A stretch of DNA of 64,000 nucleotides, taken from positions 647,625-711,624 of the forward strand of contig OZ253447.1 of assembly GCA_965261115.1 (NCBI GenBank), in the 5' to 3' direction. Position numbers and translations under genes: made by a program. Positions 34,866-60,087 of the stretch are shown piece by piece; within the stretch, counting starts at the first letter, position 1; every line of letters begins with the position of its first letter. The DNA is from Candidatus Poribacteria bacterium (GTDB lineage Bacteria > Poribacteria > WGA-4E > WGA-3G). Below the pieces are notes generated by a model. It was not told where the DNA came from and ran no database searches. It was given only the letters and a program-made list of their open reading frames with translations.

Positions 34866-34898
34866 CGAACCCCACACAAAAATGAGGAAATTATAACG

Positions 34899-35483
34899 AT
34901 GAGGACATCCCAAGCATATTTCACGCCCGAAGAATACATCACTTTAGAACGCAAAGCAATCCCTGACGCTGAGATAGTTAGAAGCGAATATATCAACGGT
35001 AAAATAATTGGAAGATCCAGTTCTAACTGGGCACACAATGTTATTACAGGCAACATTGTCGCTGGACTTTACACCCGTTTCAGAAACAGGGGATGCTTCG
35101 TATTTGCCAACGAAATGCGTGTCAGTATTCCAGCAGCAAATTCCTATTTTTATCCCGATGTCGGCGTTGTCTGTGAAGAACCCCGTTTTGAAGACGATGT
35201 TCTTGACATACTCCTCAACCCCATAGTCGTCGTAGAAGTGCTTTCTCCGTCAACAGAGGCTTACGACAGAGGCGACAAATTCGCACACTACCGCCAACTC
35301 CAATCCTTACAAGAATACATCCTCGTCTCCCAAGACAAGGTCCGTGTCGATCACTACGTCCGACACGCAACACAATGGATCCTCACCGACTTCCAAGAAC
35401 TGGAGCAACACCTTCCACTCACCTCAATCCAATGCGAACTTCCCCTACAAGAGATATACGAAAACGTCCCGTTCCCTGAATAG
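34899..35483 (+). CDS. Uma2-family (DUF820) putative restriction-endonuclease-like protein
   Basis: Classic Uma2 pattern: ...YINGKII...HNVITGNIVAGLYTRFRNRGCFVFANEMRVSIP...YFYPDVGVVCEE...; GAGGA SD. Confidence 0.75.
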   Translation: MRTSQAYFTPEEYITLERKAIPDAEIVRSEYINGKIIGRSSSNWAHNVITGNIVAGLYTRFRNRGCFVFANEMRVSIPAANSYFYPDVGVVCEEPRFEDDVLDILLNPIVVVEVLSPSTEAYDRGDKFAHYRQLQSLQEYILVSQDKVRVDHYVRHATQWILTDFQELEQHLPLTSIQCELPLQEIYENVPFPE

Positions 35484-35540
35484 CACCGATAGCCCCTGCC
35501 ACATTGACAAGACTTCCGAAATGGTCTTATTTTTTCTCCT

Positions 35541-36242
35541 TCAGTGCTTTTGGGTTTTGGGTGTGATGTCTATTGCGTCTTGCTCGGTGTTGATGGCGTT
35601 GCAGGCGACGAGGGTTTTTAGGATTTGATGTGCCAAAGTTACGTGTTTCGTGGCTTCTTCGGTGTCTTCTGCTTGGAAGATGCATTGTTTCTGGTATCCG
35701 TAGAGGGTTTCTAATTCTTGGGCGATGTTTGTAGAGGTCGTGAGGTTCAAGGTGCGGTAATTGGCGCAGAATTCGTCTCGAGTTTGGTTGAAGAGGTCGC
35801 GGTATTTCTCAGGAAATTGACGGTGGTTGATGTCCAAGCGTCGGAATTGATTGAAGAGTTCTTGCCGGAGCTGCCTTTGATGATCCGCACGTTCTTTGGT
35901 ATAATGAAGCTTGTAATTTCTGATGTATCTGCCTTCACGATAAGTATCGAACGCCGCGAGGGCACTCTCATTGAGTTTATCATCCGCGTCCTTACCGTAT
36001 TTTTCGTCGAAAGCCTTCAGATGTTTCTTAAAGTACGCCGCGATAAATTCAGATCTGCTGCTGAGTTCGCTGTCGTTGAGGGGTTCAGCCATAATTTGAT
36101 CAATATCGAGCGTCTCTGGGATTCCGAGGGGTGGCAGTTCGTCTTCAAATTCTTCAATGAATGCGTCAATGATGTCGGTTAATTTCATAAAACGTGCGTA
36201 GGATATGACGACAAATTGTTTGTGTTTCTCTTTGAGTTTCAT
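35541..36242 (-). CDS. Hypothetical protein (233 aa)
   Basis: AAAGGAG SD 8 nt before the ATG; no recognisable domain; TGCGTAAGTCCT motif ~20 nt upstream. Confidence 0.5.
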   Translation of the reverse strand: MKLKEKHKQFVVISYARFMKLTDIIDAFIEEFEDELPPLGIPETLDIDQIMAEPLNDSELSSRSEFIAAYFKKHLKAFDEKYGKDADDKLNESALAAFDTYREGRYIRNYKLHYTKERADHQRQLRQELFNQFRRLDINHRQFPEKYRDLFNQTRDEFCANYRTLNLTTSTNIAQELETLYGYQKQCIFQAEDTEEATKHVTLAHQILKTLVACNAINTEQDAIDITPKTQKH

Positions 36243-36749
36243 GTGTGGACTCCTTTAAATCAGGACTTACGCATTTTTCCATGATAACGGACGTCCGACG
36301 CACTGCAGGCGGGGTTTGAAACCCCGCCTGCAGTGGGGGCTGCGTAAGTCCTATAAATAAAATTGGGCTTACGGAAAAAGCAGTAATTTCGGTATTTTTA
36401 AACCCCCTAAATCCCCCTTATCAGGGGGACTTTAAGAGGATGTGCGTAAGTCGTAAAAATGTTACACCAGTGTAACATTTGGGATGAATAGGTTATCGGT
36501 CTAAACTTAGTGGTTGTAAGGGTTTAGAGGCGATTTTGTTGTTGCCGTAAAAAAGAAAAAATGGCGAAAAGTGTAACATTTGGTTTAGCGGTTAACCATC
36601 AGCAGTTAGAAAAATGGTTAGGTTTATGATTTAGATGTTTTAACTTAATTTGAGTTTATATTTTATATAATACCATATATAATATAGGGAGGCAAATTTA
36701 TTTTTTAGGGCTTACAACTGAATGCCCCTGATGAAGAATGAAATCGCGC

Positions 36750-36778
36750 TTGACAAACGTGGGTTCATAAGTTAATAT
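36750..36778 (+). promoter_or_regulatory. Sigma70-like promoter (TTGACA-N17-TAATAT) in a 900-bp non-coding region
   Basis: Seen directly. Confidence 0.45.
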
Positions 36779-36784
36779 TAATTA

Positions 36785-36916
36785 GAGAAACTGAGGTTTG
36801 AGTTCCGGTCGTATCTGGAACGCTATTTTAAAATCAAACACGCTTAAGACTTACACAGGTTGCTCTTTTGTAGCATAGGCTGTTAGCCTGTGCCCTGAGA
36901 ACGTCTCTGTTTTTTG
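36785..36916 (+). ncRNA. Candidate small non-coding RNA (~130 nt) between the promoter at 36750 and a hairpin plus T6 tract at ~36896-36916; contains the 26-nt hairpin repeat TGTAGCATAGGCTGTTAGCCTGTGCC
   Basis: Promoter and weak terminator seen directly; no ORF with an SD inside; the identical 26-mer recurs at 33534-33559. Confidence 0.25.
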
Positions 36917-37149
36917 AGAGTTTATCCGCTGACGGAGCGTCATATCGTCAAAATTGCGTAAATCCTGCACGCTTATAGAAAGACAGAATTCAATTGTGGC
37001 GATATTCTACCGAGGCGCGGGAATTGGTACTTACTGGCATATTCATGATGCAAGACAGACCGGATTCATCGCACGGGCACCCGAATTGTGTGAACCATCG
37101 TTTTGAGGTTTATTAACTGGACACCTGCACACAAATCGGAGAAACCGTC

Positions 37150-37509
37150 ATGTCGAAATATCAGACACAGCCTATTAAGATGGATCCTTATCAGATCCAG
37201 ACTGTTTCTCTCAAGGAACTTGTATCCGACAGTAAATTAATAAAGTTCCTGAGAGTAGAAATACCTTACGGAAAGGCGTATGGACGGATTCCATTCGCTC
37301 GGGTCCTCTACGCTTTTAACGGCGTTGAACAAAAAAAGGCAGTTCCGATGGATCTCGATAAGGGCGCATTTAGTGACAGCAGTTTCGAGAATGTATTTGA
37401 CGATGAAGAACTCGAAAAAACGTTCCGCGAAATTGCCCCTGACGTTTTTCGCAACGCTGCACCACAAATCGTTGAAGCAGTTAGCAAAGCCGCCTCTTCA
37501 AAACGGTAA
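37150..37509 (+). CDS. Hypothetical protein (119 aa) upstream of the RM-like operon
   Basis: GGAG SD; no recognisable domain. Confidence 0.5.
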   Translation: MSKYQTQPIKMDPYQIQTVSLKELVSDSKLIKFLRVEIPYGKAYGRIPFARVLYAFNGVEQKKAVPMDLDKGAFSDSSFENVFDDEELEKTFREIAPDVFRNAAPQIVEAVSKAASSKR

Positions 37510-37591
37510 GACAAACGGATTAGTAGGCTTTTAATCTTGACTTTGCTGCTGGCGAACGTTGCTACCTCACCATTTTGCATACAATTTTTTC

Positions 37592-37621
37592 TTGACACCA
37601 CCAACAAAATTTTGCTACAAT
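37592..37621 (+). promoter_or_regulatory. Sigma70-like promoter (TTGACA-N18-TACAAT) upstream of the three-gene RM-like operon
   Basis: Seen directly ~50 nt upstream of the ATG at 37670. Confidence 0.45.
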
Positions 37622-37669
37622 TAACGGGCAATCTAAACTTTCGCTTTCAGAGAACGAGACAAGAAAAAT

Positions 37670-38710
37670 ATGCAAGAATCTTTACAAAAATTACAAGAGT
37701 TGCTCCAGAAACTCTTCCGTGCTGATGCTGCCGATCTCAACTTCGGTATCTACCGCATTATCAACTACCGACGAGACCAGATCCAAAAATTCATTGACGA
37801 GGAACTCCCCACCATCGTCCAAAACGCGCTTGAGGCAAACACCGAAGCAGAATCTGCACACGAACGGATTACCGAACTTGAGAATCAAGTTCGAGAATTA
37901 GGTAATAATCTCGGAGAGGAAATGTTGGATGCCGATGGAAATCTCGTCAACGAGGTCTATAGAGAAAGACCTCTCATCCAGCAATACCTTGAAGCAAGAG
38001 AACAACTCGGCTCCCCGCAAACTCAAGACCAGCGCGCTCATGCTGTCTATAACCACCTCTATACCTTCTTCTCCCGCTACTACGAAGACGGCGACTTCAT
38101 CCCGCGCCGACGTTACTCCCAAACCGAACGCTACGCCGTCCCATACAACGGTGAAGAAGTCTACCTCCACTGGGCAAACAAAGACCAATATTATGTCAAA
38201 AGCGGAGAGCATTTCTCCACCTACAGATTCACATCTCAAGGCATCACTGTCACTTTTGACCTCCAAAACGCAGATGTCGAAAAAGATAACGTCAAAGGTG
38301 AAAAACGTTTCTTTATCCCCATACCTGCTAAGACAATCTATAAACCAGAAACCGATGAGGTTAGCATCCCATTTGAATACCGTCCACTCACCGACGAAGA
38401 AAAGAAAAAATACAGTGGTCAAAAGCAACAGGACAAAATTATTGAAGCCGCTGAATCTGAAATCATGAGATGCCTGACCAGTCATTACAATGCCCTATCC
38501 GCATTAGATCACCAAACGGAAGGCGAAACTACCCTCAAAAAGCACCTCCGCACCTATACACGCCGCAACACCGCTGACTTCTTCATTCACAAAAATCTCA
38601 GGCAGTTCCTCAACCGCGAACTGGATACCTACATCAAAAACGAAGTCATCCGTATATCTGACCTAATTTTAACGAACGTTAATACAGAATTAAGCAGGGG
38701 GAGGGCGTAA
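37670..38710 (+). CDS. Unrecognised 346-aa protein encoded immediately upstream of mod; possibly an N-terminal extension of Mod separated by a frameshift
   Basis: ORF ends at 38710. The mod reading frame is already open from 38683, and a single G insertion in the G5 tract at 38697-38701 would join the two frames. No known motif recognised. Confidence 0.5.
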   Translation: MQESLQKLQELLQKLFRADAADLNFGIYRIINYRRDQIQKFIDEELPTIVQNALEANTEAESAHERITELENQVRELGNNLGEEMLDADGNLVNEVYRERPLIQQYLEAREQLGSPQTQDQRAHAVYNHLYTFFSRYYEDGDFIPRRRYSQTERYAVPYNGEEVYLHWANKDQYYVKSGEHFSTYRFTSQGITVTFDLQNADVEKDNVKGEKRFFIPIPAKTIYKPETDEVSIPFEYRPLTDEEKKKYSGQKQQDKIIEAAESEIMRCLTSHYNALSALDHQTEGETTLKKHLRTYTRRNTADFFIHKNLRQFLNRELDTYIKNEVIRISDLILTNVNTELSRGRA

Positions 38711-38739
38711 CTGAAGTATTAACTAATAGTAATAATTGG

Positions 38740-40794
38740 TTGGAAACCGCGAAACTCGTCCACACCATCGCCACCCAAATTATTGAATTTCTCTCCCACA
38801 TTGAAGAATTCCAAAAACGTCTCTGGCTAAAAAAGAAATTTGTCCTTTCTACCGACTACTGCTTCACACTTGACCGCGTCCCAGAAGAATTTTATTTAGA
38901 AATCGCACAGAACACCGATCAACTTGAGGAGTGGAAAGACCTCTTTGCTATTCACGAAATAGACAACAACCTCATTGATGCCCACTACACCGAACCACCC
39001 TCCGTTGAATTCCTGAAAGAAAATCCGAACCTTGTTTTGGATACCTGCCACTTTGATTCAGACTTCAAGGATCGCCTCTTGGCGAATTTTGACGATCTGG
39101 ACAACGAGACAGATGGCTTGTTAATACACAGTGAGAACTTTCAGGCGTTAAATCTGTTGATAGAAAAATACCGCGAATCACTAAAAGCTATCTATATTGA
39201 TCCGCCCTATAATACTGATGCCTCAGCAATTCTTTACAAAAACAATTACAAAGATTCATCGTGGATGTCGTTGATGGCAGATCGGATTGCAGTCTCCCAC
39301 GGATTGTTGGCAGATAATGGCATCTTTTGTGCAGCGATTGACGATGTAGAAGCAGCCAATCTAAGACATCTACTCCAAAATCTCTTTGGGAACGAGAATG
39401 AACTCGGAATTGTTGCAGTTTGTTCCAATCCAGCAGGTCGTCAAAGACCCACAGGCTTTGCCCCTGCTCATGAATACGCTATGTTTTTCAGTCAAACCCA
39501 AACAGCACAAGTCGGCCGCCTTGAACGAACAGAAGAACAACTCGAGAACTCAGAAATTGATGAACAAGGTCGCTACTTCACATGGAGAGGACTTAGGAAT
39601 GGCGGAGGTCCCAACGCTCTGCGTGGTGCCCGGCCTCGTTTGTTCTATCCACTTTTTGTGAGGAATGATCAAATTCGCATTCCCAACATGGAATGGGATA
39701 GCGAGACCCGACAATGGGATCTCTTGGAATCGCCGAATCTTGGTGAAATAGAAGTATTACCAATTAGACCTGATGGTGAAGAGATGACGTGGAGGTATGG
39801 AATTGAGACCTTACAAAGAAGACTATCAGAAACTATTGCGAGAAGTGACCAGAATGGTAATATTCGGATTCTTGTTAAACGGTATCTAAACGAAGAAGGC
39901 ATGCTACCCAAGACATGGTGGGGTAAAACAGAGTACTCATCAACGCAATATGGAACCATTTTTTTAACAAATATGCTGGGTGATAGTCTCGCATTCATGT
40001 TCCCTAAATCTATTCACCTCGTTGAAGATTGTCTGAGTGTTTCTTCCCTCGGTAAAGATGATATTGTACTTGATTACTTTGGAGGATCTGGGACTACCGC
40101 CCACGCAACTATCAACCTAAATCGCCAAGACGATGGAAAGCGTAAATACATTCTTATTGAGATGGGACATCACTTTGATACCGTTCTTAAACCGCGTATC
40201 AAGAAAGCCATTTACGCCGAAAAATGGAAGGATGCTAAACCCATCTCTTGTGAGAATCAGCTCTCCCAAATCATCAAATATCAACGCATTGAATCTTACG
40301 AAGATGCCCTCAACAACATCGAATTCAACAAAACTGAACATGAGGATATCCTGCTAACTGCCGAACATCAATTAAGTTATCTGTTCGGCAGTGAAACGCG
40401 CGAAAGTCTAACGTTCCTTAACATTTCCGAACTCCAAAATCCGTTCAGTTATCAACTTAATATCGTCAAAGATATGCAGACGCAGAAACAGTCTGTCGAT
40501 TTACCGGAAACCTTCAACTACCTTCTCGGTATCTCAGTGCAAACTCGTCAATGTCTGAATGATGATGATAGACGTTATCTTGTCTACAAAGGTACAATTG
40601 GGCAAAAACCAGTCGTTATTATCTGGCGTGAAACCGCAGGCTGGAAACAAAAAGATTGGGAACGTGATTACCAGTTCATCGAAGAAAATAAACTCACAGA
40701 AGGCGCAGCAAAAGTCTATGTCAACACAGATAGCATCGTTCCAGAGGCAGAATCCTTAGATCCGCATTTTAAACGACTGATGTTTTCACAATAA
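38740..40794 (+). CDS. Type III restriction-modification Mod-like beta-class N6-adenine DNA methyltransferase
   Basis: Motif IV AIYIDPPYNT near residue 155, followed later by motif I VLDYFGGSGTTAHA (beta-class order as in EcoP15I Mod). Only a TTG start and no SD, see findings. Confidence 0.8.
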   Translation: METAKLVHTIATQIIEFLSHIEEFQKRLWLKKKFVLSTDYCFTLDRVPEEFYLEIAQNTDQLEEWKDLFAIHEIDNNLIDAHYTEPPSVEFLKENPNLVLDTCHFDSDFKDRLLANFDDLDNETDGLLIHSENFQALNLLIEKYRESLKAIYIDPPYNTDASAILYKNNYKDSSWMSLMADRIAVSHGLLADNGIFCAAIDDVEAANLRHLLQNLFGNENELGIVAVCSNPAGRQRPTGFAPAHEYAMFFSQTQTAQVGRLERTEEQLENSEIDEQGRYFTWRGLRNGGGPNALRGARPRLFYPLFVRNDQIRIPNMEWDSETRQWDLLESPNLGEIEVLPIRPDGEEMTWRYGIETLQRRLSETIARSDQNGNIRILVKRYLNEEGMLPKTWWGKTEYSSTQYGTIFLTNMLGDSLAFMFPKSIHLVEDCLSVSSLGKDDIVLDYFGGSGTTAHATINLNRQDDGKRKYILIEMGHHFDTVLKPRIKKAIYAEKWKDAKPISCENQLSQIIKYQRIESYEDALNNIEFNKTEHEDILLTAEHQLSYLFGSETRESLTFLNISELQNPFSYQLNIVKDMQTQKQSVDLPETFNYLLGISVQTRQCLNDDDRRYLVYKGTIGQKPVVIIWRETAGWKQKDWERDYQFIEENKLTEGAAKVYVNTDSIVPEAESLDPHFKRLMFSQ

Positions 40795-40812
40795 ATCCGC
40801 AAAACAACTGCT

Positions 40813-43800
40813 ATGCCCAAAAGAAACAACTCACAACGCACACTTGACAACCATCTTACGCTCCACGGATGGCTCAACAGCCATTTCGGGTATAAAACCA
40901 CGCGCGACCTACTTAACGATGTCGTAAGACTTGATGAGGGATTCAGCCCAGATGGACACTCTCCAATCTGCGAATTTCTTATGTCCCTTCCAGATTTAAA
41001 GTATGGAATTGAGGATACTTTACCAATCTATGATTCCAATATCAAAAAGCATCTGTCTGCCATAAATAACAAACGCACACAACCAATCGTCCTCCGTTAC
41101 TTTCAATACCTTGCACTCCTCTATACTGAAATTTTTTTAGATTGGAAATTCAACAGACCGGGTGAATTTCTACGTCAACTTAATATGTTTGTCCAACGCC
41201 GTAATGATGCCAGAGCTCCGAGCGATGCCATGGATACAAACTTCACAAACGCGGATCTCGATAAACTCGCTTTCTGGATGGCAACCGGTGCAGGCAAAAC
41301 CCTCATCATGCACATCAACTACCATCAATTCCTACACTACTGCAAAGACGAAGAAACTCTTGACCATGTCATTCTTATCACACCCAACGAAGGGTTGAGT
41401 GAGCAACATATACGCGAACTTGCCAACTCCGGCATTCGGTGTGAACGTTTTAACATTGAACGAAATCGCTTGGCGAGTACGCATGAGGCAGTACAGGTAA
41501 TCGAAATAACAAAATTAGTAGAAGAAAAAACCGGTGGTGGTTTGAGCGTTCCGGTTGAAGCATTTGAGGGAAACAACCTCATTTTTGTAGATGAAGGTCA
41601 CAAAGGTAGCGGTGGAAAAGTCTGGCGAACTTACCGAGAAGCACTCGCCGAAACCGGTTTCACCTTTGAATATAGTGCGACTTTCGGACAAGCACTTGCA
41701 GCCGCGAGAAACGCAGACCTTGTTGAAGAATATGGAAAAGCCATCGCCTTTGACTATTCATATCGATACTTCTACGAGGATGGACATGGCAAGAACTTCC
41801 GTGTCCTTAACGTTCACCACGATGAAGAGTCCCAAACCGAAACACTCCTTTTAGCCAATCTTCTCAGCTTTTACGAACAGCGATGCTATTTCAAGCAAGA
41901 ACGCGACGCGGTGCGTGATTACGGATTAGATTCACCCTTATGGACATTCGTTGGAAGTAAAGTTAATGCTGTCTATACTGAGAACAGCCGTTCCCGCTCT
42001 GATGTCCTTAACGTTATTCGTTTTCTGCACCGGTTTCTAAAAAACGAAGAAAATTGGGCAACCGATACCATCGAGAAGATTCTCAACGGTGATTCCGGCT
42101 TATCGGATGACGGCACTGATGTTTTCCACAACCGTCTCAACTATCTCAGAAACCTCCGTGAAACGCCAGCGCAAATCTATACTGGTATCCTCGATGAAGT
42201 ATTTCACACCAACGCAAGCGGCGCATTACACCTACAAGATGTTCGAAATGCGCAAGGCGAAATTGCATTGAAAACTACTCACGGCACGGAAAACTTTGGT
42301 CTCATCTACATTGGGGATACCACTGCCTTCAAAAAACTTGTCAATAGCGATAATGCAGGTATTGAAACAGAGTCCGAAGATGTACTGACGGAAAGCCTTT
42401 TTAACAACATCAACACTTTCGATAGTCCAATTAATATCTTGATTGGCGCGAAAAAATTCATTGAAGGATGGGACAGTTGGCGTGTCACCGCGATGGGACT
42501 ACTAAACATCGGTAGGCAGGAAGGCTCTCAAATTATCCAATTGTTCGGTCGGGGTGTTCGCTTACGCGGCAAAAACATGAGCCTCAAACGCAGTGCTGCT
42601 CTTGACGGCGAGCATCCGCCTAATCTACCTCTCTTGGAAACCTTAAATATTTTCGCTGTCCGTGCCAACTTCATGGCACAATTCCGAGATTACCTCATGC
42701 GTGAAGGCATAGAACTCGATGAACCTATCCAAATGGAGATTCCAATCGTCTCTAACGACAGTTTCCTCGCGCATCAGCTCTTCGTCCCAAACGTTCTTCC
42801 ATACGACGAAGCTGCCAAAGGACAGTGTGTTCCCCTCGTAGTTAATATCAATGCTTACATCACTCATACGACGCAAATCGTTGAGGTTATCGGGAGCAGT
42901 ACACAACAAGGCATCCGAGGGAGTAGATCAACGGCAGCCTTGGAACGTAAAATTCCAGAAGAAAGTCTGAAATTGGTAGACTGGGAAAAAATCTACCTGC
43001 ATCTGATTGAATACAAACACGAACAGCAATTTCACAACCTCATCTTTGACATCCAGACCCTTAAGACAATTATGGAGCCATCTCAAGAACTGTACGGGCT
43101 CACCGTCATGGCAGAATCCGAAGTCAAGCCAACATCGTTGGAAGAGGTCACTCGCTTAGAGGAATTAGTGATTACACTCCTCCGCAAGTATATCGCCAAA
43201 TTTTATCGCATCATTCAGAAGCAGTGGAGTAGCAACAGGGTGAGGTTGAAAACATTAGACGAAGATGATGCTAATTTCACAGATTGGAGTGTCCACATTC
43301 CCCGAGACGAAGCACAGGAACTCGAGCCACAAATTCAACACCTCATAGAGAGTGGTGAAATATACGGACCGAATGTAACAGATTTCCCCAACGCCTACAA
43401 CGATAGGCACTTATATCAACCACTCCTCGCGATAACCAATGCCAACGATTCGTGGCGAATCGCACCACCGGCTCTGGAAGAAAGCGAACAACAATTTGTA
43501 AAAGATTTGCGTCTTTACATCCGCCAGCAACGCGAAGAACATTTCAAAGAAAAAGAGATGTTCCTCTTACGCAACCAGAGTCGAGGCAAAGGTATCGGCT
43601 TTTATCAGAATGAAGGCTTTTATCCCGACTTTATTCTCTGGATAACCAAAGGAGCAAAGCAGCGTATTGTTTTCATCGAACCTCACGGTATGGTGCATGA
43701 CGCGGTTAACGAGCACAACGACAAAATCACCCTTTTTAAAAGACTCCGTACCGTTTCTTATGAACGCTTCCGCGGTGAACACGTGCAAATGGACTCCTTT

Positions 43801-43956
43801 ATCATCTCAAAAACTGACTTTCAAGTTCTCCGCCGCAGAGAAGGTATGGAGAGACAGGAATTTGCAGATGAATGGCACATCCTCTTCCGCACCGAAGCAG
43901 ATCCAAGTTACCTCTCTCCAATTTTCCAAGAACCAGATCATGACTCCACGCCGTAG
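40813..43956 (+). CDS. Type III restriction enzyme Res-like subunit (SF2 helicase plus C-terminal PD-(D/E)xK-like nuclease region)
   Basis: Walker A MATGAGKT, motif II FVDEGHKG (DEAH-like), motif VI QLFGRGVRLRG. C-terminal YPDFILW...IVFIEPHG resembles the Res endonuclease motif but with E-P-H in place of E-x-K. Confidence 0.75.
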   Translation: MPKRNNSQRTLDNHLTLHGWLNSHFGYKTTRDLLNDVVRLDEGFSPDGHSPICEFLMSLPDLKYGIEDTLPIYDSNIKKHLSAINNKRTQPIVLRYFQYLALLYTEIFLDWKFNRPGEFLRQLNMFVQRRNDARAPSDAMDTNFTNADLDKLAFWMATGAGKTLIMHINYHQFLHYCKDEETLDHVILITPNEGLSEQHIRELANSGIRCERFNIERNRLASTHEAVQVIEITKLVEEKTGGGLSVPVEAFEGNNLIFVDEGHKGSGGKVWRTYREALAETGFTFEYSATFGQALAAARNADLVEEYGKAIAFDYSYRYFYEDGHGKNFRVLNVHHDEESQTETLLLANLLSFYEQRCYFKQERDAVRDYGLDSPLWTFVGSKVNAVYTENSRSRSDVLNVIRFLHRFLKNEENWATDTIEKILNGDSGLSDDGTDVFHNRLNYLRNLRETPAQIYTGILDEVFHTNASGALHLQDVRNAQGEIALKTTHGTENFGLIYIGDTTAFKKLVNSDNAGIETESEDVLTESLFNNINTFDSPINILIGAKKFIEGWDSWRVTAMGLLNIGRQEGSQIIQLFGRGVRLRGKNMSLKRSAALDGEHPPNLPLLETLNIFAVRANFMAQFRDYLMREGIELDEPIQMEIPIVSNDSFLAHQLFVPNVLPYDEAAKGQCVPLVVNINAYITHTTQIVEVIGSSTQQGIRGSRSTAALERKIPEESLKLVDWEKIYLHLIEYKHEQQFHNLIFDIQTLKTIMEPSQELYGLTVMAESEVKPTSLEEVTRLEELVITLLRKYIAKFYRIIQKQWSSNRVRLKTLDEDDANFTDWSVHIPRDEAQELEPQIQHLIESGEIYGPNVTDFPNAYNDRHLYQPLLAITNANDSWRIAPPALEESEQQFVKDLRLYIRQQREEHFKEKEMFLLRNQSRGKGIGFYQNEGFYPDFILWITKGAKQRIVFIEPHGMVHDAVNEHNDKITLFKRLRTVSYERFRGEHVQMDSFIISKTDFQVLRRREGMERQEFADEWHILFRTEADPSYLSPIFQEPDHDSTP

Positions 43957-51666: not shown

Positions 51667-54600
51667 ATGACAGAAGCGTCAATTCACGTACAAGGTGCGC
51701 GAGAACACAACCTACGCAATATTGACATCCAACTGCCAAAAGATAAACTTATCGTCTTCACCGGCGTTAGCGGCTCTGGTAAATCTTCACTGGCAATTGA
51801 TACTGTCTATGCCGAAGGACAACGGCGATATATTGAATCTTTATCGGCGTACGCACGCCAATTCTTGGGACAACTCGGAAAACCAGACGTAGATGAAATC
51901 GTCGGGCTGTCCCCCTCTATCGCCATCAGTCAGGGATCAACCGGACATAACCCGCGCTCCACGGTCGCCACTGTAACCGAGATCTACGACTACCTGCGTG
52001 TGCTTTATGCCCGTGTCGGACAATTCCACTGTCCCGAATGTGGTCGTGAAGTCGGTTCACAAACCCCCACAGACATCGTCAACACTTTGCTCAACCACCC
52101 TGAACGCACAAGGCTCATCATCTTAGCACCGATCGCCAGAGGTTCCCGCGGCGCACATGAAAAAGAAATCGAGGACCTACGAAATGCCGGTTTCGCCCGA
52201 TTACGCGTTGATGGCGAAATACACGAAATCCGTCCAGGCTTCGCGCTCAGTCGCAACCAACGCCACGACATTGATCTCGTCATCGACAGGATTATCATCA
52301 AAGACGGCATCGAACCACGCATCACGCAAGCAGTAGATACAGCACTTTTGCGCGGAGAGGGCAGCATGCTTGTCCAAGTTGTGCCAACTGAAGGCGAGGC
52401 ATCCCCATTTCTATCAGAAGAAGACGATCTACTCTTTAGTAGGGACTACACCTGTTCGCACTGTCGGATAAGTTTCGTGAAACCAGAACCCCGCCATTTT
52501 TCTTTCAATAACCCCGACGGAATGTGCGAAAACTGCAGGGGGTTGGGTGTACAAATGGGGATCCTACCGCAGTTGATTATCCTTGATGATACCCTCTCTA
52601 TCATGAAAGGAGCTATCAGTCTGTGGGGACCCCTTAACACGCAAAAGCGCGCCACAGAAAAAGCCATTGCCGAAGCACTCGCAAAACATCTCGGATTTGA
52701 TCTCAAAACGCCTTGGAAGGAACTCACGCCGGAACAACAAAACGCCGTCCTTTACGGCACCGGCGACGACATCCTCACGATCACGATCCCCGCGAAAAAT
52801 ACACAAAAAAATCGAAAACAACGCCGACGACACCGCGTCCACTTTCACGGTATCATCCCCGCCGAAGAACAGAAGCACTACTTCGATGATGACGACGAAG
52901 CCGATGAAGACGACTTCCCTGATTACTTCGTCAAAATGACCTGTCGAGTATGTGAAGGCACCCGACTGAACTCTTGGACAAAAGCCATAACGATAGACAA
53001 TACCCCAATAACCAACATCCTTGAAATGTCTATTCAGGACGCGACCGATTTTTTCAATGATCTTGAACTCCCAGAACGCGAGGCGTTCATCGCGCAGGAA
53101 CTCTTAAAGGAAATTCGCGGACGACTCGGATTCCTTATGGATGTCGGATTGGGATACCTGACGCTCTCACGTCCCGCACCGACGCTTTCCGGCGGTGAAG
53201 CGCAACGCATCCGTCTCGCCAGCCAAGTAGGCGCAGGGTTACGCGATGTTACTTACGTGCTTGATGAGCCGAGCATCGGGTTACACCCACGCGACCACGC
53301 GGGGCTACTCACCACCCTCCTAAACCTGCGGAATCAGGGCAACACCGTCATTGTTGTTGAACACGATGAGGCAACCATGTTGGTCGCCGACTGGATCGTC
53401 GATTTCGGGCCTGGCGCAGGCATCAAAGGCGGAAAGATAACCGATATCGGGACACCCGCACAATTCATTAAGGAGAGTAGGACCCTTACTGCCCAATATC
53501 TCCGTGGCGATAAGGTGATCATCCAGCCTGAATCCCGCCGCCCAACAGGAGACAACTGGATACAGATACAAAACGCACGGCAAAACAACCTGAAAGCGAT
53601 CAGTCCTAAAATACCAATCGGCACCCTCTGCTGTGTAACAGGTGTCAGCGGCTCTGGAAAGAGTTCCTTAATCCACGATATCCTCTACAATGCACTCGCT
53701 CGCGACCTCATGAAGGCAAAAACCGTACCGGGCGACTACGACGATATCCGAGGGATCATCAAAGAAAAAGAAGTGCCTATCTCCGATGTTATTGACAAAA
53801 TTATCAACATTAACATGGCACCCATCGGACGAACACCACGCTCCAACGCCGCAACCTACACAAAGGTGTTTGATGCGATTCGCGCACTCTACGCCGGCTT
53901 GCCTGATGCAAAATTGCGAGGCTATAAACCGGGACGGTTCAGTTTCAATGTTACCGGAGGCAGATGTGAGGCATGCAACGGCAACGGTGCCAAAAAAGTT
54001 GATATGGGACTCCTCTCTGATGTCTGGGTGGAGTGCGAGGTATGCAATGGGAAACGCTTTAACAACGAGACCCTCGCAATAAAATATAAAGGGAAAAATA
54101 TCGCTGAAGTCCTCGAAATGGATATTGATACCGCACTCGTCCACTTCGCCGATATTCCAAGAGTCGCAAGAGGCTTAAAACTACTCCACGATGTCGGCCT
54201 CGATTACATTAAACTCGGACAACCCGCACCGACACTTTCCGGAGGCGAGGCGCAACGCATCAAACTTTCAAAGGAACTCTCAAAACGAGGAACCGGCAAA
54301 ACCCTTTATATCCTTGATGAACCCACAACAGGGTTGCATTTTGACGATGTAAATAAACTACTAACGATTCTTCATCGACTCGTAGACGATGGTAACACCG
54401 TCGTCGTCGTAGAACATAACCTTGAGGTCATCAATTCCGCAGACTATCTCATCGACTTAGGACCAGAGGGCGGTGTCGGCGGTGGCACTATCGTTGCTGA
54501 AGGCACACCTGAACAGATCGCTGAGATGCCCGAATCTTACACCGGACAAGCACTCCGCGGTGATTTCGATATCTGGCGTGATGCCAAGCAACGACTCAAG

Positions 54601-57465
54601 GAACCTGAACTTGCTTACGCACTCGGACAAACACACGAAGAACGAACTGCAATCGCTGTGCAAGGTGCTACAGAAAATAACCTCAAAAATGTTGACATCG
54701 ATATCCCGCATCGGAAAATGACGGCGTTGACAGGTGTCAGCGGCTCTGGAAAAACCTCCCTCGCACTTGATACCATCTACGCCGAAGGACAGCGGCGTTA
54801 TATCGAGACTCTCAGCACCTATGCACGTCAGTTCATAGGACAGATGGAGAAACCGAAAGTCTCAAAAATCGAAGGACTTTCACCCGCCATCGCAATTTCG
54901 CATGCAAACGCAGGGCAAAACCCACGCTCAACAGTCGCAACAATCACCGAAATACATGACGGACTCCGCACGCTTTACGCCAGATGGGGTAAACCCCACT
55001 GTCCCGACTGCCTTGTAGAGGTCCAATCCCAGAGTGCCGAACAAATAACACAACAGGTTTTTGAAATGCTCCCGCAAGAACGGGTGGATGTTCTCGCCCC
55101 CCTCACAAACTTTATGCTTCTCCCAGAAACTAACGAAGGCATAACAAGGGGTAAAATCATTGACATCAACGCCAATGAATCTGCTTACGGGCTAAAGGGA
55201 AACGAGGATTACGCCGAGGCATTCAGTCGATTGCAACGCGCTGGTTTTGCACGCGTCCAAATTGATGGCGAAATTCACAGACTTGATGAAGCCCCCAAAC
55301 TCAGCAAAGGCATTCGCCATGAAATTTTTATCGTCATTGATCGCGTTGAACTCGTTGACGAAGAAAAGGCGCGGTTTACGGAAGCCGTTGAGTTAGCACT
55401 CCTCCAAAGCGGCGGGTTCGTACTCATCCAAAAAACGCGTTCCACCGCTCGCGCGTCCACGAGAAGCAACCGATCCAAACAGAAAACCACGGAAAAACCA
55501 GAGCCGGAGACGACAGATAAAAAATTCTTCAGTGAACACGCCATGTGTGCCGCCTGCGGCAACAACTTCGCACAGTTGACACCACGCCACTTCTCCTTTA
55601 ACAACAAAGTCGGCGCGTGCGACTTCTGCGACGGACGCGGCAGGAATTTACACCCACCACACAACGCATGCAGCCAATGTCAAGGCACACGTCTGAAACC
55701 GTTTCCAAGCCACGTCATGTTTGAAGATACAACCATCGCTGAATTGATGGAAATGTCAATTACCGAAATTATTGCGTTCTTCAATGTCCGGTTGAAACAG
55801 ATTGAAGCGCAAGTCGGCAATGACACACAAAACGGTAGTGCGGATCCTTCTGTCCCAAAAGGGGTGTCAACCTCCAGAGCGACACATCCTGCACTTCATG
55901 TACATACCTCGCCTGAATTTGAAGCCGAAGTCCTCCAGCAAATTCAGATACGCCTTCAGTTCTTAGAAGATATCGGACTCGGTTACCTCGCATTAGACCG
56001 TGGCGCACCGACGCTTTCGGGCGGCGAAATGCGTAGAATCCAACTCGCAAGTCAACTCGGCAGCGGGCTCACCGGCGTAACCTATATCCTCGACGAACCG
56101 AGCATCGGGCTACACCCACGCGACCAAGAACGTCTCATCAACGCACTCAAGGAACTCCGCGATATCGGCAACAGCGTCCTCGTCGTTGAACACGACCGCG
56201 ATACAATATTAGCCTCCGACCATGTGATTGACTTCGGACCTAAAGCAGGCAAAGGCGGCGGTGAAATTATCGCCATCGGGGCACCAGATACCTTTACTGA
56301 CGGCACCATTGCTACACAGAAACCGTCTACCCAGTCTCTGACGCAAGCCTACCTCTCCAATGAAGTAGAAATCCCTGTTCCAAAAACGCGACGTAAAGGG
56401 ACAGGCAAACAGTTGGCAATATCCGGTGCGAAAACCAACAACCTCAAAAACATTGATGTCAAGATTCCGCTCGGAACACTCACCTGCGTAACCGGCGTTT
56501 CCGGGTGCGGAAAAAGCTCACTCGTTGAAGGCACCCTAAAACCAGCACTTGAAAGTCGTAGCTCCATCAAAACAGGTGATGCTAAAGATCGCCGTTATAC
56601 CCACCATATCAGCGATAGCCAGTGGGAACCCATATATAACGACTACGGAATACCGGAGTATGAAAGCATCCGCGGTGTTAGCCATATCAAGCGACTCATC
56701 AACGTAGACCAGAAGGCGATCGGTGAAACACCGCGCTCTAATCCTGCTACTTATACCGACCTGTTCACGAAAATCCGTGAACTCTTCGCCGAGCAACACG
56801 ACGCAAAGATGCGCGGATTTGGTATCGGTATGTTCAGTTTCAATCTTGCTGCTGGACAGTGCCACGTATGCGAGGGGCACCGTTTCAATCGCGTCGAGAT
56901 GCATTTTCTGCCGGATGTCTGGATGCCGTGTGAAGCGTGTAATAGCACCGGCTACAATATAGATACGCTTGAAATCCGTTATAAAGGAAAAAATATCGCC
57001 GAAGTCTTAGATATGACGGTAGATGAAGCACTCACATTCTTCAGTGAAAGTTCACGTATCTGCCGAACACTCCAGATGTTAGCCGATGTCGGGTTGGGTT
57101 ACATCCAATTAGGGCAATCAGCGACGACACTCTCCGGTGGTGAAGCACAGCGCGTCAAACTCGCGAAAGAGTTAGCGCGTCGTCAAACCGGTTCAACGCT
57201 CTATATTATGGACGAACCGACAACAGGACTCCACTTCGACGACATCCAAAAGCTCCTCAAGGTCTTGAACACACTCGTCGATGCAGGGAACACCATCATC
57301 GCCGTCGAACACAACATCGACGTCATCAAATCCGCAGACTGGATCATCGACTTGGGACCCGAGGGCAGCAAACGTGGCGGAGAAGTCGTTGCAATGGGCA
57401 CCCCCGAAGAGGTCGCAAAGGTCCAAAAATCCCACACCGCACGCTTCCTACGTGAGGTATTGTAG
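51667..57465 (+). CDS. uvrA: Tandem-fused double UvrA (two complete UvrA units in one 1932-aa polypeptide)
   Basis: Unit 1 from MTEASIHVQGAREHNLRNIDIQLPKDKLIVFTGVSGSGKSSLAIDTVYAEGQRRY... to ...AEGTPEQIAEMPESYTGQALRG. Unit 2 from ~residue 990 TAIAVQGATENNLKNVDIDIPHRKMTALTGVSGSGKTSLALDTIYAEGQRRY... to ...GTPEEVAKVQKSHTARFLREVL. Each unit has two ABC modules and the UvrA zinc-finger CxxC pairs. Confidence 0.85.
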   Translation: MTEASIHVQGAREHNLRNIDIQLPKDKLIVFTGVSGSGKSSLAIDTVYAEGQRRYIESLSAYARQFLGQLGKPDVDEIVGLSPSIAISQGSTGHNPRSTVATVTEIYDYLRVLYARVGQFHCPECGREVGSQTPTDIVNTLLNHPERTRLIILAPIARGSRGAHEKEIEDLRNAGFARLRVDGEIHEIRPGFALSRNQRHDIDLVIDRIIIKDGIEPRITQAVDTALLRGEGSMLVQVVPTEGEASPFLSEEDDLLFSRDYTCSHCRISFVKPEPRHFSFNNPDGMCENCRGLGVQMGILPQLIILDDTLSIMKGAISLWGPLNTQKRATEKAIAEALAKHLGFDLKTPWKELTPEQQNAVLYGTGDDILTITIPAKNTQKNRKQRRRHRVHFHGIIPAEEQKHYFDDDDEADEDDFPDYFVKMTCRVCEGTRLNSWTKAITIDNTPITNILEMSIQDATDFFNDLELPEREAFIAQELLKEIRGRLGFLMDVGLGYLTLSRPAPTLSGGEAQRIRLASQVGAGLRDVTYVLDEPSIGLHPRDHAGLLTTLLNLRNQGNTVIVVEHDEATMLVADWIVDFGPGAGIKGGKITDIGTPAQFIKESRTLTAQYLRGDKVIIQPESRRPTGDNWIQIQNARQNNLKAISPKIPIGTLCCVTGVSGSGKSSLIHDILYNALARDLMKAKTVPGDYDDIRGIIKEKEVPISDVIDKIININMAPIGRTPRSNAATYTKVFDAIRALYAGLPDAKLRGYKPGRFSFNVTGGRCEACNGNGAKKVDMGLLSDVWVECEVCNGKRFNNETLAIKYKGKNIAEVLEMDIDTALVHFADIPRVARGLKLLHDVGLDYIKLGQPAPTLSGGEAQRIKLSKELSKRGTGKTLYILDEPTTGLHFDDVNKLLTILHRLVDDGNTVVVVEHNLEVINSADYLIDLGPEGGVGGGTIVAEGTPEQIAEMPESYTGQALRGDFDIWRDAKQRLKEPELAYALGQTHEERTAIAVQGATENNLKNVDIDIPHRKMTALTGVSGSGKTSLALDTIYAEGQRRYIETLSTYARQFIGQMEKPKVSKIEGLSPAIAISHANAGQNPRSTVATITEIHDGLRTLYARWGKPHCPDCLVEVQSQSAEQITQQVFEMLPQERVDVLAPLTNFMLLPETNEGITRGKIIDINANESAYGLKGNEDYAEAFSRLQRAGFARVQIDGEIHRLDEAPKLSKGIRHEIFIVIDRVELVDEEKARFTEAVELALLQSGGFVLIQKTRSTARASTRSNRSKQKTTEKPEPETTDKKFFSEHAMCAACGNNFAQLTPRHFSFNNKVGACDFCDGRGRNLHPPHNACSQCQGTRLKPFPSHVMFEDTTIAELMEMSITEIIAFFNVRLKQIEAQVGNDTQNGSADPSVPKGVSTSRATHPALHVHTSPEFEAEVLQQIQIRLQFLEDIGLGYLALDRGAPTLSGGEMRRIQLASQLGSGLTGVTYILDEPSIGLHPRDQERLINALKELRDIGNSVLVVEHDRDTILASDHVIDFGPKAGKGGGEIIAIGAPDTFTDGTIATQKPSTQSLTQAYLSNEVEIPVPKTRRKGTGKQLAISGAKTNNLKNIDVKIPLGTLTCVTGVSGCGKSSLVEGTLKPALESRSSIKTGDAKDRRYTHHISDSQWEPIYNDYGIPEYESIRGVSHIKRLINVDQKAIGETPRSNPATYTDLFTKIRELFAEQHDAKMRGFGIGMFSFNLAAGQCHVCEGHRFNRVEMHFLPDVWMPCEACNSTGYNIDTLEIRYKGKNIAEVLDMTVDEALTFFSESSRICRTLQMLADVGLGYIQLGQSATTLSGGEAQRVKLAKELARRQTGSTLYIMDEPTTGLHFDDIQKLLKVLNTLVDAGNTIIAVEHNIDVIKSADWIIDLGPEGSKRGGEVVAMGTPEEVAKVQKSHTARFLREVL

Positions 57466-57583
57466 GAGCAATAGACCAATTCTTGTTAGTTTGACCTTTA
57501 GCACTTATTTTCTGCTTGATTTTCTCTCTTAAACATGCTATGATTTAGATTCCATATACGGAACACAACAAAGAAAGGCTAAC

Positions 57584-57802
57584 ATGATTCATATTAACGA
57601 GGAACTCTGTGTCTATTGCGGCGCATGCGTCGCTGTCTGTCCTGAAAACATCATTGATCTGGTAGACACACATCTGAAAATAGACCAACCCAAGTGCACC
57701 GATTGTATGAAATGCGTCAAAGGATGCCCGATTGGTGTACTTTCCATGGAACGGAACGGAAAGATTTACGCTTTCGATTATCCTGACAGAGGACTCTTCT
57801 GA
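57584..57802 (+). CDS. 2[4Fe-4S] ferredoxin
   Basis: Two CxxCxxCxxxCP motifs (CVYCGACVAVCP, CTDCMKCVKGCP); GAAAGG SD. Confidence 0.8.
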   Translation: MIHINEELCVYCGACVAVCPENIIDLVDTHLKIDQPKCTDCMKCVKGCPIGVLSMERNGKIYAFDYPDRGLF

Positions 57803-57828
57803 TTAAGGACACCCCAAAGAGAGTATAA

Positions 57829-59022
57829 ATGCTACATTCAGAATATGATGTCATTGTTGTTGGCGCGGGCCCCGGGGGTTCCATCGCTGCAAAAGTTGCC
57901 GCTGAAAATGGATTACGAGTACTCCTCTTAGAGAAACGCCAAGAAATTGGGACCCCTGTTCGCTGAGCAGAGGGTATTGGCACAGAGGCTCTGTGCGAAT
58001 TTATTCAACCGGACCCAGCATGGGTGTCCCGCGAGATGGACGGGGCGCGCTTCTTTTCACCGAATGAAACTGCTGTGACATTTCATCATCCAGAGATAGG
58101 TTATGTGCTGGAACGGAAGGTCTTTGATCGAGCAATTACAGAAATGGCAGCAACCGCTGGTGCTGAAGTGATGGTTAAAGCCCGCGTCACAAACACCACT
58201 TTCTCTGATGAGGGTACTGTGAACGGTGTCGTGTTCCGATATTCAGGACGTGAGTACACTTGTAAAACGAAGGTAGTCATTGCATCGGATGGTGTCGAAT
58301 CACAGGTCGGTCGATGGGCAGGCATTGATACAACCCATCAACTGCGTGAGGTAGGAATCTGTGCCCAATATCTGATATCAAATATTGATATCAGACCCGA
58401 GTACTTTGACTTCTACTTCGGACACCAAGTCGCACCACGCGGCTATGTCTGGGTATTTCCAAAAGGTGATGACATCGCTAATGTTGGCATCGGTATTGGT
58501 GGCGCTATTTCAGGCAAAGGTGGCAAACTCGCCATAGATTATTTGAACGAGTTTGTCAAACGAAAATTTCCAGAGGGTAAAATTTTAGGGCTGGTGTGCG
58601 GAGCCGTTCCTGTTGGGCAAAGCTTGTCTCAACTCGTCGCGGACGGCATTTTAATTGTAGGTGACGCAGCGCACCACAGCGATCCAATGTCTGGTGGCGG
58701 CATCGCTAACGCAATGTATTCAGGAAAATTCGCCGCCGAAGCCGCAGCCGACGGTATTCACAGTGGTGATGTCACTGAAAAAGCACTCTCGGCATATACA
58801 AAACGCTGGAATAGAGAATTCGGCAAGCATTTTAAAAATATCTGTCGCATCCGAGATGGTATCATCAAATTTAGTGACGAAACGCTTGATAAATATACAG
58901 AAACACTTTCTAAAATCCCCACCGAACAGATAACAATGGCGAAGATTTTCCAAACACTGCTGATGCACCAGCCCCGTTTGCTTTTTGAACTCCGCCATCT
59001 CATTCTGGCAGGATGGATTTAG
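57829..59022 (+). CDS. Geranylgeranyl-reductase-family FAD-dependent oxidoreductase with in-frame TGA (codon 46) at the conserved Cys position; candidate selenoprotein, or pseudogene/sequencing error
   Basis: ATG at 57829 with AAAGAGAG SD: [45 protein letters not shown]-[TGA 57964-57966]-AEGIGTEAL... The track ORF 58024..59022 (GTG start) is the same frame continued. Total 397 codons, typical for GGR/ChlP. Confidence 0.6.
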
Positions 59023-59226
59023 CAGGTTGTCTAAACAAGGTTACACCTCAGTTAACTCGGCTTAATCTATACCACACCGAATCCCTCTTAAATAAATACG
59101 CAGCGTCCGCGTAGCGTGTCGCCTCCCATCCAAAATTCCAGCCTTCCAATCCCCAAATTTCCACTTGACAAATTCTGGAATATATGGAATTATAATACCG
59201 TATCTATCAAAAACGTCGTATTCACA

Positions 59227-60087
59227 ATGAAAATTCCAGATTACTATCAAATCTTAGAAATCGAGCGGGATGCTACCGCTCGCGAGATACAGGGAGCATT
59301 TCGGAAACTCGCAAAACGCTACCATCCCGACAAAAATCCGGAGCAGACCGCTTTTGCGGAAAAGATGTTCCGCGAAATCTGTAATGCTTATAACACGCTC
59401 CAAGATAAAAAACAGAAATCTGATTACGATCGGACATTACAGACGATTGAACGACAGCAGAAATCGCAAGAAGCGTACTTCGACAGACTGAATAGGCTTG
59501 ACCAGAACTACGCTAAGTTAGAATTGCTGTTGCACGCACTGCTCCGTCAAAACTACGAAACCGGCGTTTCTATGTATGAGCAGTTATGCTATCACTCCGA
59601 AGAAGTAGGGGAAAAGTGGTGCATCGATGATTTCCTGAGTTACGAAGAGAGTCGAGACTGCGAATTCCTCATCGCCGAAGCATACCAGAAACTCGGATTT
59701 TCTAACGGAGACGCGTCTTCCACGCTTGAGCGACACCGAAAAATCGAACAGGCGATGCTGCTTTATGAATCCCTACTGTCCGCTGAATCAAAACGTCCCT
59801 GTTTCAAACACTTTATTCGCGAAGTTAAAGAACGTCTCAAACTCATCTACCTCTATCACTTTAGCGTTGAAGGTTACGACCAAAGGTGCCACATTCCGTT
59901 GACGAAGATCCAAGCGTTAAAACTCCCGAAACGAGAGACCGCATGGATGTACAAAAAAATCGCTGAATTTTATGTCGAGATTGATCAACTACCAGAAGCA
60001 CGCATCGTTCTGAAAATGGCGTTTGAACTGCAACCCCGTCTCACCGGTGCCAAAAAGATTTGCCAACGATTGAACATAGCATATTAA
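59227..60087 (+). CDS. J-domain (DnaJ-like) protein with helical C-terminal region
   Basis: DYYQILEIERDATAREIQGAFRKLAKRYHPDKN is a canonical J domain with HPD motif; start chosen at the J-domain Met (the track's upstream start at 59116 is possible). Confidence 0.7.
   Translation: MKIPDYYQILEIERDATAREIQGAFRKLAKRYHPDKNPEQTAFAEKMFREICNAYNTLQDKKQKSDYDRTLQTIERQQKSQEAYFDRLNRLDQNYAKLELLLHALLRQNYETGVSMYEQLCYHSEEVGEKWCIDDFLSYEESRDCEFLIAEAYQKLGFSNGDASSTLERHRKIEQAMLLYESLLSAESKRPCFKHFIREVKERLKLIYLYHFSVEGYDQRCHIPLTKIQALKLPKRETAWMYKKIAEFYVEIDQLPEARIVLKMAFELQPRLTGAKKICQRLNIAY

Follow-up and report, generated by a model that had tools for sequence, protein, structure and literature searches.

The window considered here, that is, the whole stretch of DNA that was analyzed, comprises 64,000 nt of a Candidatus Poribacteria bacterium (assembly GCA_965261115.1, contig OZ253447.1, positions 647,625–711,624 of the forward strand). 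It harbors a gene pair composed of a small ferredoxin (Fd) and a flavoenzyme of the geranylgeranyl reductase (GGR) family, the reading frame of which carries a TGA at codon 46. A preliminary description of the same DNA had singled out this gene as a candidate selenoprotein, on account of a TGA at the position of a conserved Cys, a hairpin shortly downstream that could act as a selenocysteine insertion sequence (SECIS), and the neighboring ferredoxin gene. The gene pair, the interrupted codon, and the hairpin were all confirmed in the sequence, and the principal features of the locus are as follows (FAD, flavin adenine dinucleotide; Sec, selenocysteine):

57584–57802, plus strand: ferredoxin gene, 72 aa, 2[4Fe-4S] type with two CxxCxxCxxxCP motifs (Pfam Fer4_7, 8.6e-15)
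57829–59022, plus strand: gene of the GGR-family flavoenzyme, 397 codons plus stop, with a predicted Sec at residue 46
57862–57879, plus strand: GxGxxG FAD-binding motif (GAGPGG, residues 12–17), with G12, G14, P15, and G17 invariant in the alignment
57964–57966, plus strand: UGA codon 46, the predicted Sec codon, aligned with the flavin-proximal catalytic Cys
57980–57996, plus strand: SECIS-like upper stem-loop GCACAGA-GGC-TCTGTGC, 7 bp, with the apical loop GGC at 57987–57989
58435–58461, plus strand: PxxYxWxFP catalytic motif (PRGYVWVFP, residues 203–211), as defined in PMC10821996 and PMC6309074
58693–58701, plus strand: GGG motif of the flavin site (residues 289–291; motif according to PMC6309074), with G289, G290, and G291 invariant

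The two genes are separated by a spacer of 26 bp. The ferredoxin gene ends with a TGA, here an ordinary terminator, and the GGR gene with a TAG at 59020–59022; the TGA at codon 46, in the context GTPVR-TGA-AEGIG, is the sole in-frame stop inside the latter. For family scoring, a Cys was substituted at this codon. The resulting product matched Pfam GGR_cat (PF22578) at 1.9e-25, with 89 bits against a cut-off of 27, and NCBIfam TIGR02032 with 235.7 bits against a cut-off of 158.8, while none of the NCBIfam equivalog models for archaeal digeranylgeranylglycerophospholipid (DGGGPL) reductases, ChlP, or MenJ reached its cut-off. Comparison by phmmer with the GGR of Thermoplasma acidophilum (PDB 3OZ2) gave 2.9e-80 over residues 5–392. 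The same structure was the top PDB match retrieved by Foldseek when the read-through product was modeled with AlphaFold2 (template-modeling score, TM, 0.87 over 396 columns, with 37% identity), followed by 4OPT and 3ATQ; the model itself had a predicted local distance difference test (pLDDT) of 87.6 and a predicted TM score (pTM) of 0.88. As modeled, the read-through product has the three-domain GGR fold, and by its family matches the window protein belongs to the GGR family, with the reduction of polyprenyl C=C bonds as its predicted activity.

Codon 46 falls on a near-invariant Cys column and aligns exactly with Cys47 of the Sulfolobus acidocaldarius enzyme (SaGGR) and with Cys45 (chain numbering) of the T. 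acidophilum enzyme (TaGGR, 3OZ2), which bears out the placement of the TGA proposed in the preliminary description. This flavin-proximal Cys is conserved in all archaeal GGRs and essential for SaGGR catalysis, and its role is thought to be electron transfer or flavin tuning (PMC10821996); in the structure, it sits directly behind the isoalloxazine ring of FAD (PMC6309074). Since the GxGxxG motif lies 5' of the TGA, a functional enzyme requires read-through of this codon.

Conservation of the In-Frame TGA across Poribacteria

The fate of codon 46 was followed in a comparison set of 29 sequences, consisting of 22 Poribacteria genome loci, six further loci from other assemblies, and the window. 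The 22 genome loci, all labeled Candidatus Poribacteria, derive from chromosome-level assemblies, from metagenome-assembled genomes (MAGs) of sponges and corals, and from open-ocean MAGs. TGA occupied codon 46 in all 29 sequences (63–97% protein identity), and the complete Poribacteria chromosomes carrying the gene include OY763324.1, OZ243938.1, OZ246960.1, OY282444.1, OZ240244.1, and OZ242326.1, along with the 4.43-Mb contig of ERZ25068511. The scan that gave the 22 genome loci also returned 58 non-Poribacteria homologue loci, each with TGC or TGT in this column, which cover Methanosarcinales, ANME-1, Methanomassiliicoccales, Methanobacteriales, Chloroflexota, Ignavibacteria, and others, and a Cys was likewise present in the aligned column of 28 Cys-type database proteins.

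The segments flanking the TGA were then compared pairwise with the window. Over the 45 codons on the 5' side, the proportion of synonymous differences (pS) amounted to 0.49–0.86 and that of nonsynonymous differences (pN) to 0.02–0.10, corresponding to pN/pS values of ~0.03–0.15, and pN was likewise far below pS over the first 45 codons on the 3' side. Synonymous sites are near saturation, with the protein conserved on both sides of the TGA. The strong purifying selection on the 5' side indicates that the N-terminal segment is translated in-frame and selected jointly with the rest of the protein.

Public annotation presents a truncated version of this gene. A protein search with the window GGR returned about 60 clusters at 63–97% identity, all of them without the N-terminus (283–346 aa, 70–86% coverage), and full-length matches appeared only at 63% identity or less. 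Gene callers choose varied "restart" codons to arrive at these 283–348-aa products, and such scattered calls indicate that no internal start is conserved. The public copies that we looked up (e.g., MFB3041337.1 and MCZ6681524.1) all carry an N-terminally truncated annotation, devoid of the FAD-binding motif and with the Sec codon unrecognized, usually with a separate 45-aa open reading frame (ORF) annotated beside it; the truncated products are named "NAD(P)/FAD-dependent oxidoreductase" or "digeranylgeranylglycerophospholipid reductase". Additional defects were observed in two of the 22 genome loci, namely, a TGG>TAG change in L022 (3001–4191) and a frameshift in L011 (3001–4190), which represent either MAG assembly errors or local gene decay. 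A genome-wide reassignment of TGA was also considered and rejected because TGA terminates five of the 38 window genes, the ferredoxin gene among them, and the code is thus standard. Scanning the window for other TGA-interrupted ORFs yielded no convincing second selenoprotein, and an ORF pair at 25154–27094, taken up as a possible TGA-interrupted gene, turned out to be two separate genes.

In a neighbor-joining tree, the Sec forms composed a single clade nested among Cys-type bacterial GGRs, with P0031/P0034 as the sister group and the archaeal sequences outside; the Methanosarcinales GGRs (P0103 and P0105) are ~49–51% identical to the window protein. This topology suggests a single Cys-to-Sec conversion in the ancestor of marine Poribacteria.

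A Covarying Hairpin Downstream of the UGA

The hairpin already recognized in the preliminary description begins 13 nt after the UGA, with a distance of 20 nt from the UGA to the loop, and both distances are invariant across the Poribacteria sequences. Bacterial SECIS elements have UGA-to-loop distances of 16–37 nt, and the minimal fdhF element measures 17 nt. Throughout the 29 sequences (25 of them distinct), the 7-bp helix is 96% paired, and three of its seven pairs show compensatory changes (CG>UA, AU>GC, and AU>CG/UA). The resulting covariation score of 0.382 compares with 0.215 ± 0.022 in shuffled alignments, none of which reached it in 500 trials, and slid registers scored 0.17 at most. 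Several of these compensatory changes swap two amino acids together, as in Thr...Cys to Ala...His or Ala...Arg, which indicates that the constraint acts on the RNA and not on the protein. The triloops read GGC, GGA, or GUC, and the loop begins with G in 24 of the 29 sequences. A G at the first or second loop position is a hallmark of bacterial SECIS elements (PMC13582414), and the apical loop exhibits this feature; together with the covariation, it lends weight to the hairpin as a SECIS candidate.

The hairpin is confined to the TGA-containing clade; Cys-type relatives whose proteins are similar in sequence lack it. Folding of the equivalent 17-mers gave 0 to −4.9 kcal/mol in Cys-type homologues, the closest ones included, against −6.4 to −9.9 kcal/mol in most Sec types. 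Hairpins with a 7-bp stem and a 3-nt loop occur at 0.14% of the window positions, and what places the present one beyond chance is that it is conserved and covarying across genomes.

A larger structure around this stem-loop may be delineated:

57970–58006, plus strand: possible extended SECIS, with lower stem 57970–57972/58004–58006 and 57974–57978/57998–58002, flanking a G.G mismatch

The extended lower stem was predicted in most orthologues, with partial pairing and no covariation, and we put it forward tentatively. Another helix, CCGC-UGA-GCGG, in which the UGA would make up the triloop, was rejected, as it was 80% paired with no covariation and the conserved Arg and Ala codons explain the pairing. 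Rfam searches, of the whole window at the gathering threshold and of 57900–58100 at E ≤ 10, detected no SECIS family and returned noise only.

The Ferredoxin Partner and an Ether-Lipid Cassette in Orthologous Loci

Of 21 informative Poribacteria loci, 20 carry the ferredoxin gene immediately upstream of the GGR gene, some of them with overlapping stop and start codons, and a ferredoxin gene is also found upstream of GGR in most archaeal loci. Moreover, the two proteins occur as Fd–GGR fusions in paralogues of ~470 aa with an N-terminal 2[4Fe-4S] domain (P0081, P0090, and P0097, within the listed series P0081–P0100). Some of these fusion paralogues are labeled Poribacteria. In Methanosarcina acetivorans, GGR requires the ferredoxin of the neighboring gene in vivo (PMC10821996, PMC6309074). 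By analogy with this precedent, and from gene linkage and fusions, an electron path from ferredoxin through FAD to the substrate is well supported, in line with the suggestion of the preliminary description that the ferredoxin is a plausible electron donor for GGR.

In the more divergent Sec-type Poribacteria (L008–L010, L012, L014–L019, L086, and L087), the pair is embedded in a UbiA–Fd–GGR–PcrB cassette, which was also detected in the closest Cys-type relatives (L081–L085). Representative spans, all outside the window, are as follows:

L009, 1900–5002: UbiA–Fd–GGR–PcrB cassette
L014, 1900–4990: UbiA–Fd–GGR–PcrB cassette
L086, 2203–7065: UbiA–Fd–GGR–PcrB cassette
L083, 2925–5968: UbiA–Fd–GGR–PcrB cassette

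The cassette PcrB proteins scored 209–216 bits against the equivalog cut-off of 161.55 for TIGR01769 (GGGPS, phosphoglycerol geranylgeranyltransferase). For UbiA, the best match in L009 was NF009521 (geranylgeranylglycerol-phosphate geranylgeranyltransferase, DGGGPS), and in L014 it was NF009523 ("prenyltransferase") with NF009521 second, all of these matches being below cut-off. The cassette genes are the core of archaeal diether-lipid synthesis, and by its composition the cassette points to archaeal-type ether-lipid saturation. No PcrB or UbiA match was obtained by tblastn anywhere in the window, where the gene order, shared with the nearest relatives, is UvrA-like–Fd–GGR–DnaJ-like; judging by this order, both they and the window have lost the cassette arrangement. 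As there is no cassette in the window, the substrate in this genome is assigned solely by orthology.

Selenocysteine as the Predicted Reading of Codon 46

We consider it very likely that UGA46 is read as Sec and that this residue replaces the catalytic Cys of GGR in marine Poribacteria, Sec insertion being predicted from the conserved codon, the covarying hairpin, and the alignment to the Cys column. The mechanism that we propose runs as follows. The ferredoxin and GGR genes would form one operon of a marine Poribacterium. During translation, SelB with Sec-tRNA(Sec) would bind the 17-nt stem-loop 13 nt past the UGA, and Sec would be inserted in competition with release factor 2, giving a full-length 397-aa FAD enzyme in which Sec46 stands where other GGRs have the conserved Cys, directly behind the isoalloxazine ring. 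The FAD would be reduced by the small 2[4Fe-4S] ferredoxin, and the reduced flavin and the Sec residue would saturate geranylgeranyl (polyprenyl) C=C bonds. The likeliest substrate would be an archaeal-type prenyl glycerol-phosphate ether, because orthologues sit in the UbiA/PcrB cassette. In this enzyme, Sec may provide a chemical benefit over Cys.

Several observations weigh against this reading. Actual Sec insertion is deduced from sequence, and scans for tRNA/tmRNA, Rfam, and Pfam families found no selA, selB, selD, or tRNA-Sec within the 64-kb window. The hairpin by itself is only moderately unusual (z = −1.69 for the 76-nt fold), and the minimum free energy of the 45 nt after the TGA ranks among the best 2.9% of segments following TGN trinucleotides, again a moderate value. 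In the pelagic subclade (L014–L016, L087, and L088), the stem contains a C.C or C.U mismatch; when a simple 5-bp stem is drawn instead, its 7-nt loop begins with CC and not with G, and the GGC loop appears only with the internal mismatch in the stem. Additionally, the hairpin together with GAAUUUAUUC fits a crude terminator pattern. As for the substrate, neither the window nor its closest relatives have GGGPS or UbiA genes next to GGR.

Regarding the Sec machinery, the tRNA and tmRNA scan of the window found none of either kind, and a Pfam scan of 20 further window ORFs detected no SelA, SelB, or SelD. Three ORFs of sizes resembling SelD, SelB, and SelA (starting at 37670, 38740, and 44403) were examined and rejected, since the first encodes an unknown protein, the second a DNA methylase, and the third an FAD-linked oxidase. 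At the level of the phylum, the COGs of SelA, SelB, and SelD have nonzero counts in Poribacteria bin70, bin44, and WGA3G (Slaby et al. 2017, PMC5649159, Table S4), and Sec-type group 4 [NiFeSe] hydrogenases are reported in Poribacteria by a 2026 survey (PMC13582414). The machinery is presumed in this genome from such phylum-level literature, which is the weakest link of the argument.

Among the alternatives, the one that survives best holds that the UGA is recoded as an amino acid other than Sec, either as Cys by a tRNA(ReC)-type allo-tRNA acting with SelB and the hairpin or as Trp, Cys, or Arg by near-cognate read-through that the hairpin stimulates. The conserved UGA, the hairpin, and the two-sided selection are equally compatible with any recoding mechanism, and tRNA(ReC)-like tRNAs that decode a SECIS-dependent UGA as Cys have been described in several uncultured phyla (PMC13582414); that study, however, names Armatimonadota, Desulfobacterota, and JAPLJL01 for tRNA(ReC), not Poribacteria. 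It is also hard to explain why a costly UGA and its hairpin would have been kept over the observed divergence merely for Cys, for which TGC would suffice, and SelA and SelD, needed for Sec only, occur in Poribacteria bins (PMC5649159). On this balance, we regard non-Sec recoding as unlikely.

A second alternative accepts the hairpin as conserved and assigns it another function, that of a transcription attenuator or terminator or of an mRNA-stability element placed after the UGA. A scan indeed flagged the hairpin followed by GAATTTATTC (57980–58006) as terminator-like. Yet the U-rich tail is only 5/8 and encodes a conserved Glu-Phe-Ile, and a terminator located there, 30 nt into an indispensable portion of the ORF, would leave the cell without the enzyme. 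The restriction of the hairpin to the TGA clade, its absence from Cys-type relatives, and its invariant distance from the UGA likewise speak for a tie to the codon, and we hold this explanation to be very unlikely. Conceivably, ribosome stalling at the UGA could be linked with transcription through the hairpin region.

The remaining alternative, that the TGA is a true stop in a pseudogene, an erroneous assembly, or a split gene coding for a 45-aa peptide and a separately initiated C-terminal protein, finds some support in the 45-aa and 283–348-aa ORFs of gene callers and public annotation and in the two loci with additional defects, but it is effectively refuted, since the same TGA recurs in 29 independent assemblies, chromosome-level ones included, the segment upstream of it is under strong purifying selection as is the one downstream, no internal start is conserved among relatives, a stop would sever the GxGxxG motif from the remaining Rossmann fold, and the full-length model superposes on 3OZ2 across 396 columns; the pseudogene and sequencing-error alternatives entertained in the preliminary description are excluded on the same grounds.

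Relation to Known Systems

The closest structural counterpart of the window GGR, Ta0516 (PDB 3OZ2, the T. acidophilum digeranylgeranylglycerophospholipid reductase), belongs to the same family and fold and shares with it the GxGxxG motif, the PVR-C-[GA]-EG flavin loop, YxWxFP, and GGG. It differs in being archaeal, in having Cys at the UGA position, and in its gene being without the SECIS hairpin. The reductant of Ta0516 is reported to be NADP(H), although a gene for a 4Fe-4S protein is present in its locus (PMC10821996). In having a ferredoxin gene beside that of GGR, the window resembles M. acetivorans, in which the ferredoxin encoded by the adjacent gene is the specific in vivo reductant of GGR (Isobe et al. 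2014; Ogawa et al. 2014; cited in PMC10821996 and PMC6309074); the M. acetivorans protein, unlike that of the window, is a Cys enzyme of an archaeal host, and for Poribacteria the ferredoxin dependence is derived from linkage and fusions only. SaGGR (PDB 3ATQ/3ATR) provides the catalytically essential Cys47 in the column of codon 46 and is otherwise more distant, with only ~22% identity; its C-terminal domain is longer, and its locus is devoid of a ferredoxin gene (PMC10821996).

Known Sec flavoenzymes, as compiled in a family table (PMC13188914), resemble the predicted Sec-GGR in being FAD enzymes with Sec in place of a redox Cys and in having a bacterial SECIS within the coding region. They belong to other families, however, and perform thiol/sulfide chemistry, whereas GGR acts as a reductase of unactivated C=C bonds, with a Cys that does not take part in a CxxC/disulfide couple. 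With the canonical bacterial SECIS (Escherichia coli fdhF; bSECISearch consensus), the window hairpin has in common the in-ORF stem-loop, the short fixed distance from the UGA, and the loop G (PMC13582414). It departs from it by a 3-nt loop, a perfect 7-bp stem, and no bulged U, and SelB binding is putative. Archaeal-type ether-lipid genes, specifically bacterial GGGPS and DGGGPS homologues, have been described in bacteria of the FCB group (Villanueva et al., PMC7852524; Coleman et al., PMC6431249), and Poribacteria parallel them in this regard. They differ from the FCB-group bacteria in uniting these genes in one cassette with ferredoxin and Sec-GGR, which is found in the orthologous loci and not in the window, and a text search of these two studies did not encounter the word Poribacteria in either.

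No earlier report of a Sec-GGR was found in the searchable literature, and with coverage incomplete "unreported" is to be taken as provisional. The protein is absent from the 2026 family table (PMC13188914), from BSepDB (PMC13326102), from the deep-Sep study (PMC12013277), from a 2022 review (PMC9312934), and from the GOS survey (PMC2398784), and the string "geranyl" does not occur in these five sources, bar an unrelated reference in one; NCBIfam has no Sec-GGR model either. By the comparative evidence, Sec-GGR is almost certainly a bacterial selenoprotein with an in-ORF SECIS, derived by exchange of a Cys for Sec and belonging to an enzyme family new to the selenoproteome.

Genomic Surroundings and Other Features of the Window

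Upstream, the ferredoxin gene adjoins a gene for a 1932-aa protein with two tandem UvrA-like units (51667–57465, plus strand), whose counterparts in related contigs measure 1931–1938 aa. Between the two genes lies a possible start of transcription for the pair:

57516–57544, plus strand: promoter-like site TTGATT-17-TATGAT, with TG

This is a weak candidate for an operon promoter, such sites being no commoner in the region than in shuffled sequence. Downstream, the DnaJ-domain ORF (59116–60087, plus strand) probably has its true start later, at the Met of MKIPDYYQILE. A good sigma-70-like site (TTGACA-17-AATTAT, with TG) at 59165–59193 falls within the listed 5' extension of this ORF, and with a promoter at this site the ferredoxin and GGR genes would make up a two-gene unit in the window.

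Elsewhere, two very large leucine-rich repeat proteins are encoded on the minus strand at 4397–9082 (1561 aa) and 9152–11425 (757 aa), with near-identical C-terminal stretches of ~90 residues ending in ...LTAGDFTATRKMLIRK; both are reminiscent of the repeat proteins of eukaryotic type in sponge symbionts. An island at 32154–43956 encodes a DDE transposase, a Fic protein, a Uma2 endonuclease, an N6/N4 DNA methylase, and a type III restriction Res subunit. The product of the gene at 1890–2600 (plus strand) contains an Anabaena sensory rhodopsin transducer (ASRT) domain; no gene for a rhodopsin is evident in its vicinity.

Implications for Poribacteria and the GGR Family

If the reading of UGA46 as Sec is true, this would be the first Sec enzyme in isoprenoid/lipid saturation, and its chemistry, a flavin-dependent alkene reduction in lipid synthesis, would be unusual among selenoenzymes. 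Owing to the truncated annotation, metabolic reconstructions of Poribacteria carry a broken gene at this step. The cassette extends archaeal-type ether-lipid genes to another bacterial phylum, which bears on the "lipid divide" debate. As a tentative and rather speculative extension, marine Poribacteria might produce saturated archaeal-type ether lipids by way of GGGPS, DGGGPS, ferredoxin, and Sec-GGR, in which case lipid saturation would be selenium-dependent and the Cys of the family would be a chemically active redox or nucleophilic residue. If so, the flavin-proximal Cys would be neither structural nor purely acid–base, and it might act, for instance, as a relay for single electrons coming from ferredoxin or through formation of an adduct at flavin C4a. 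The natural Sec variant would offer a mechanistic probe for the role of the active-site Cys in GGRs, and it may also represent a more oxidation-tolerant catalyst for biofuel-oriented GGR engineering (PMC6309074).

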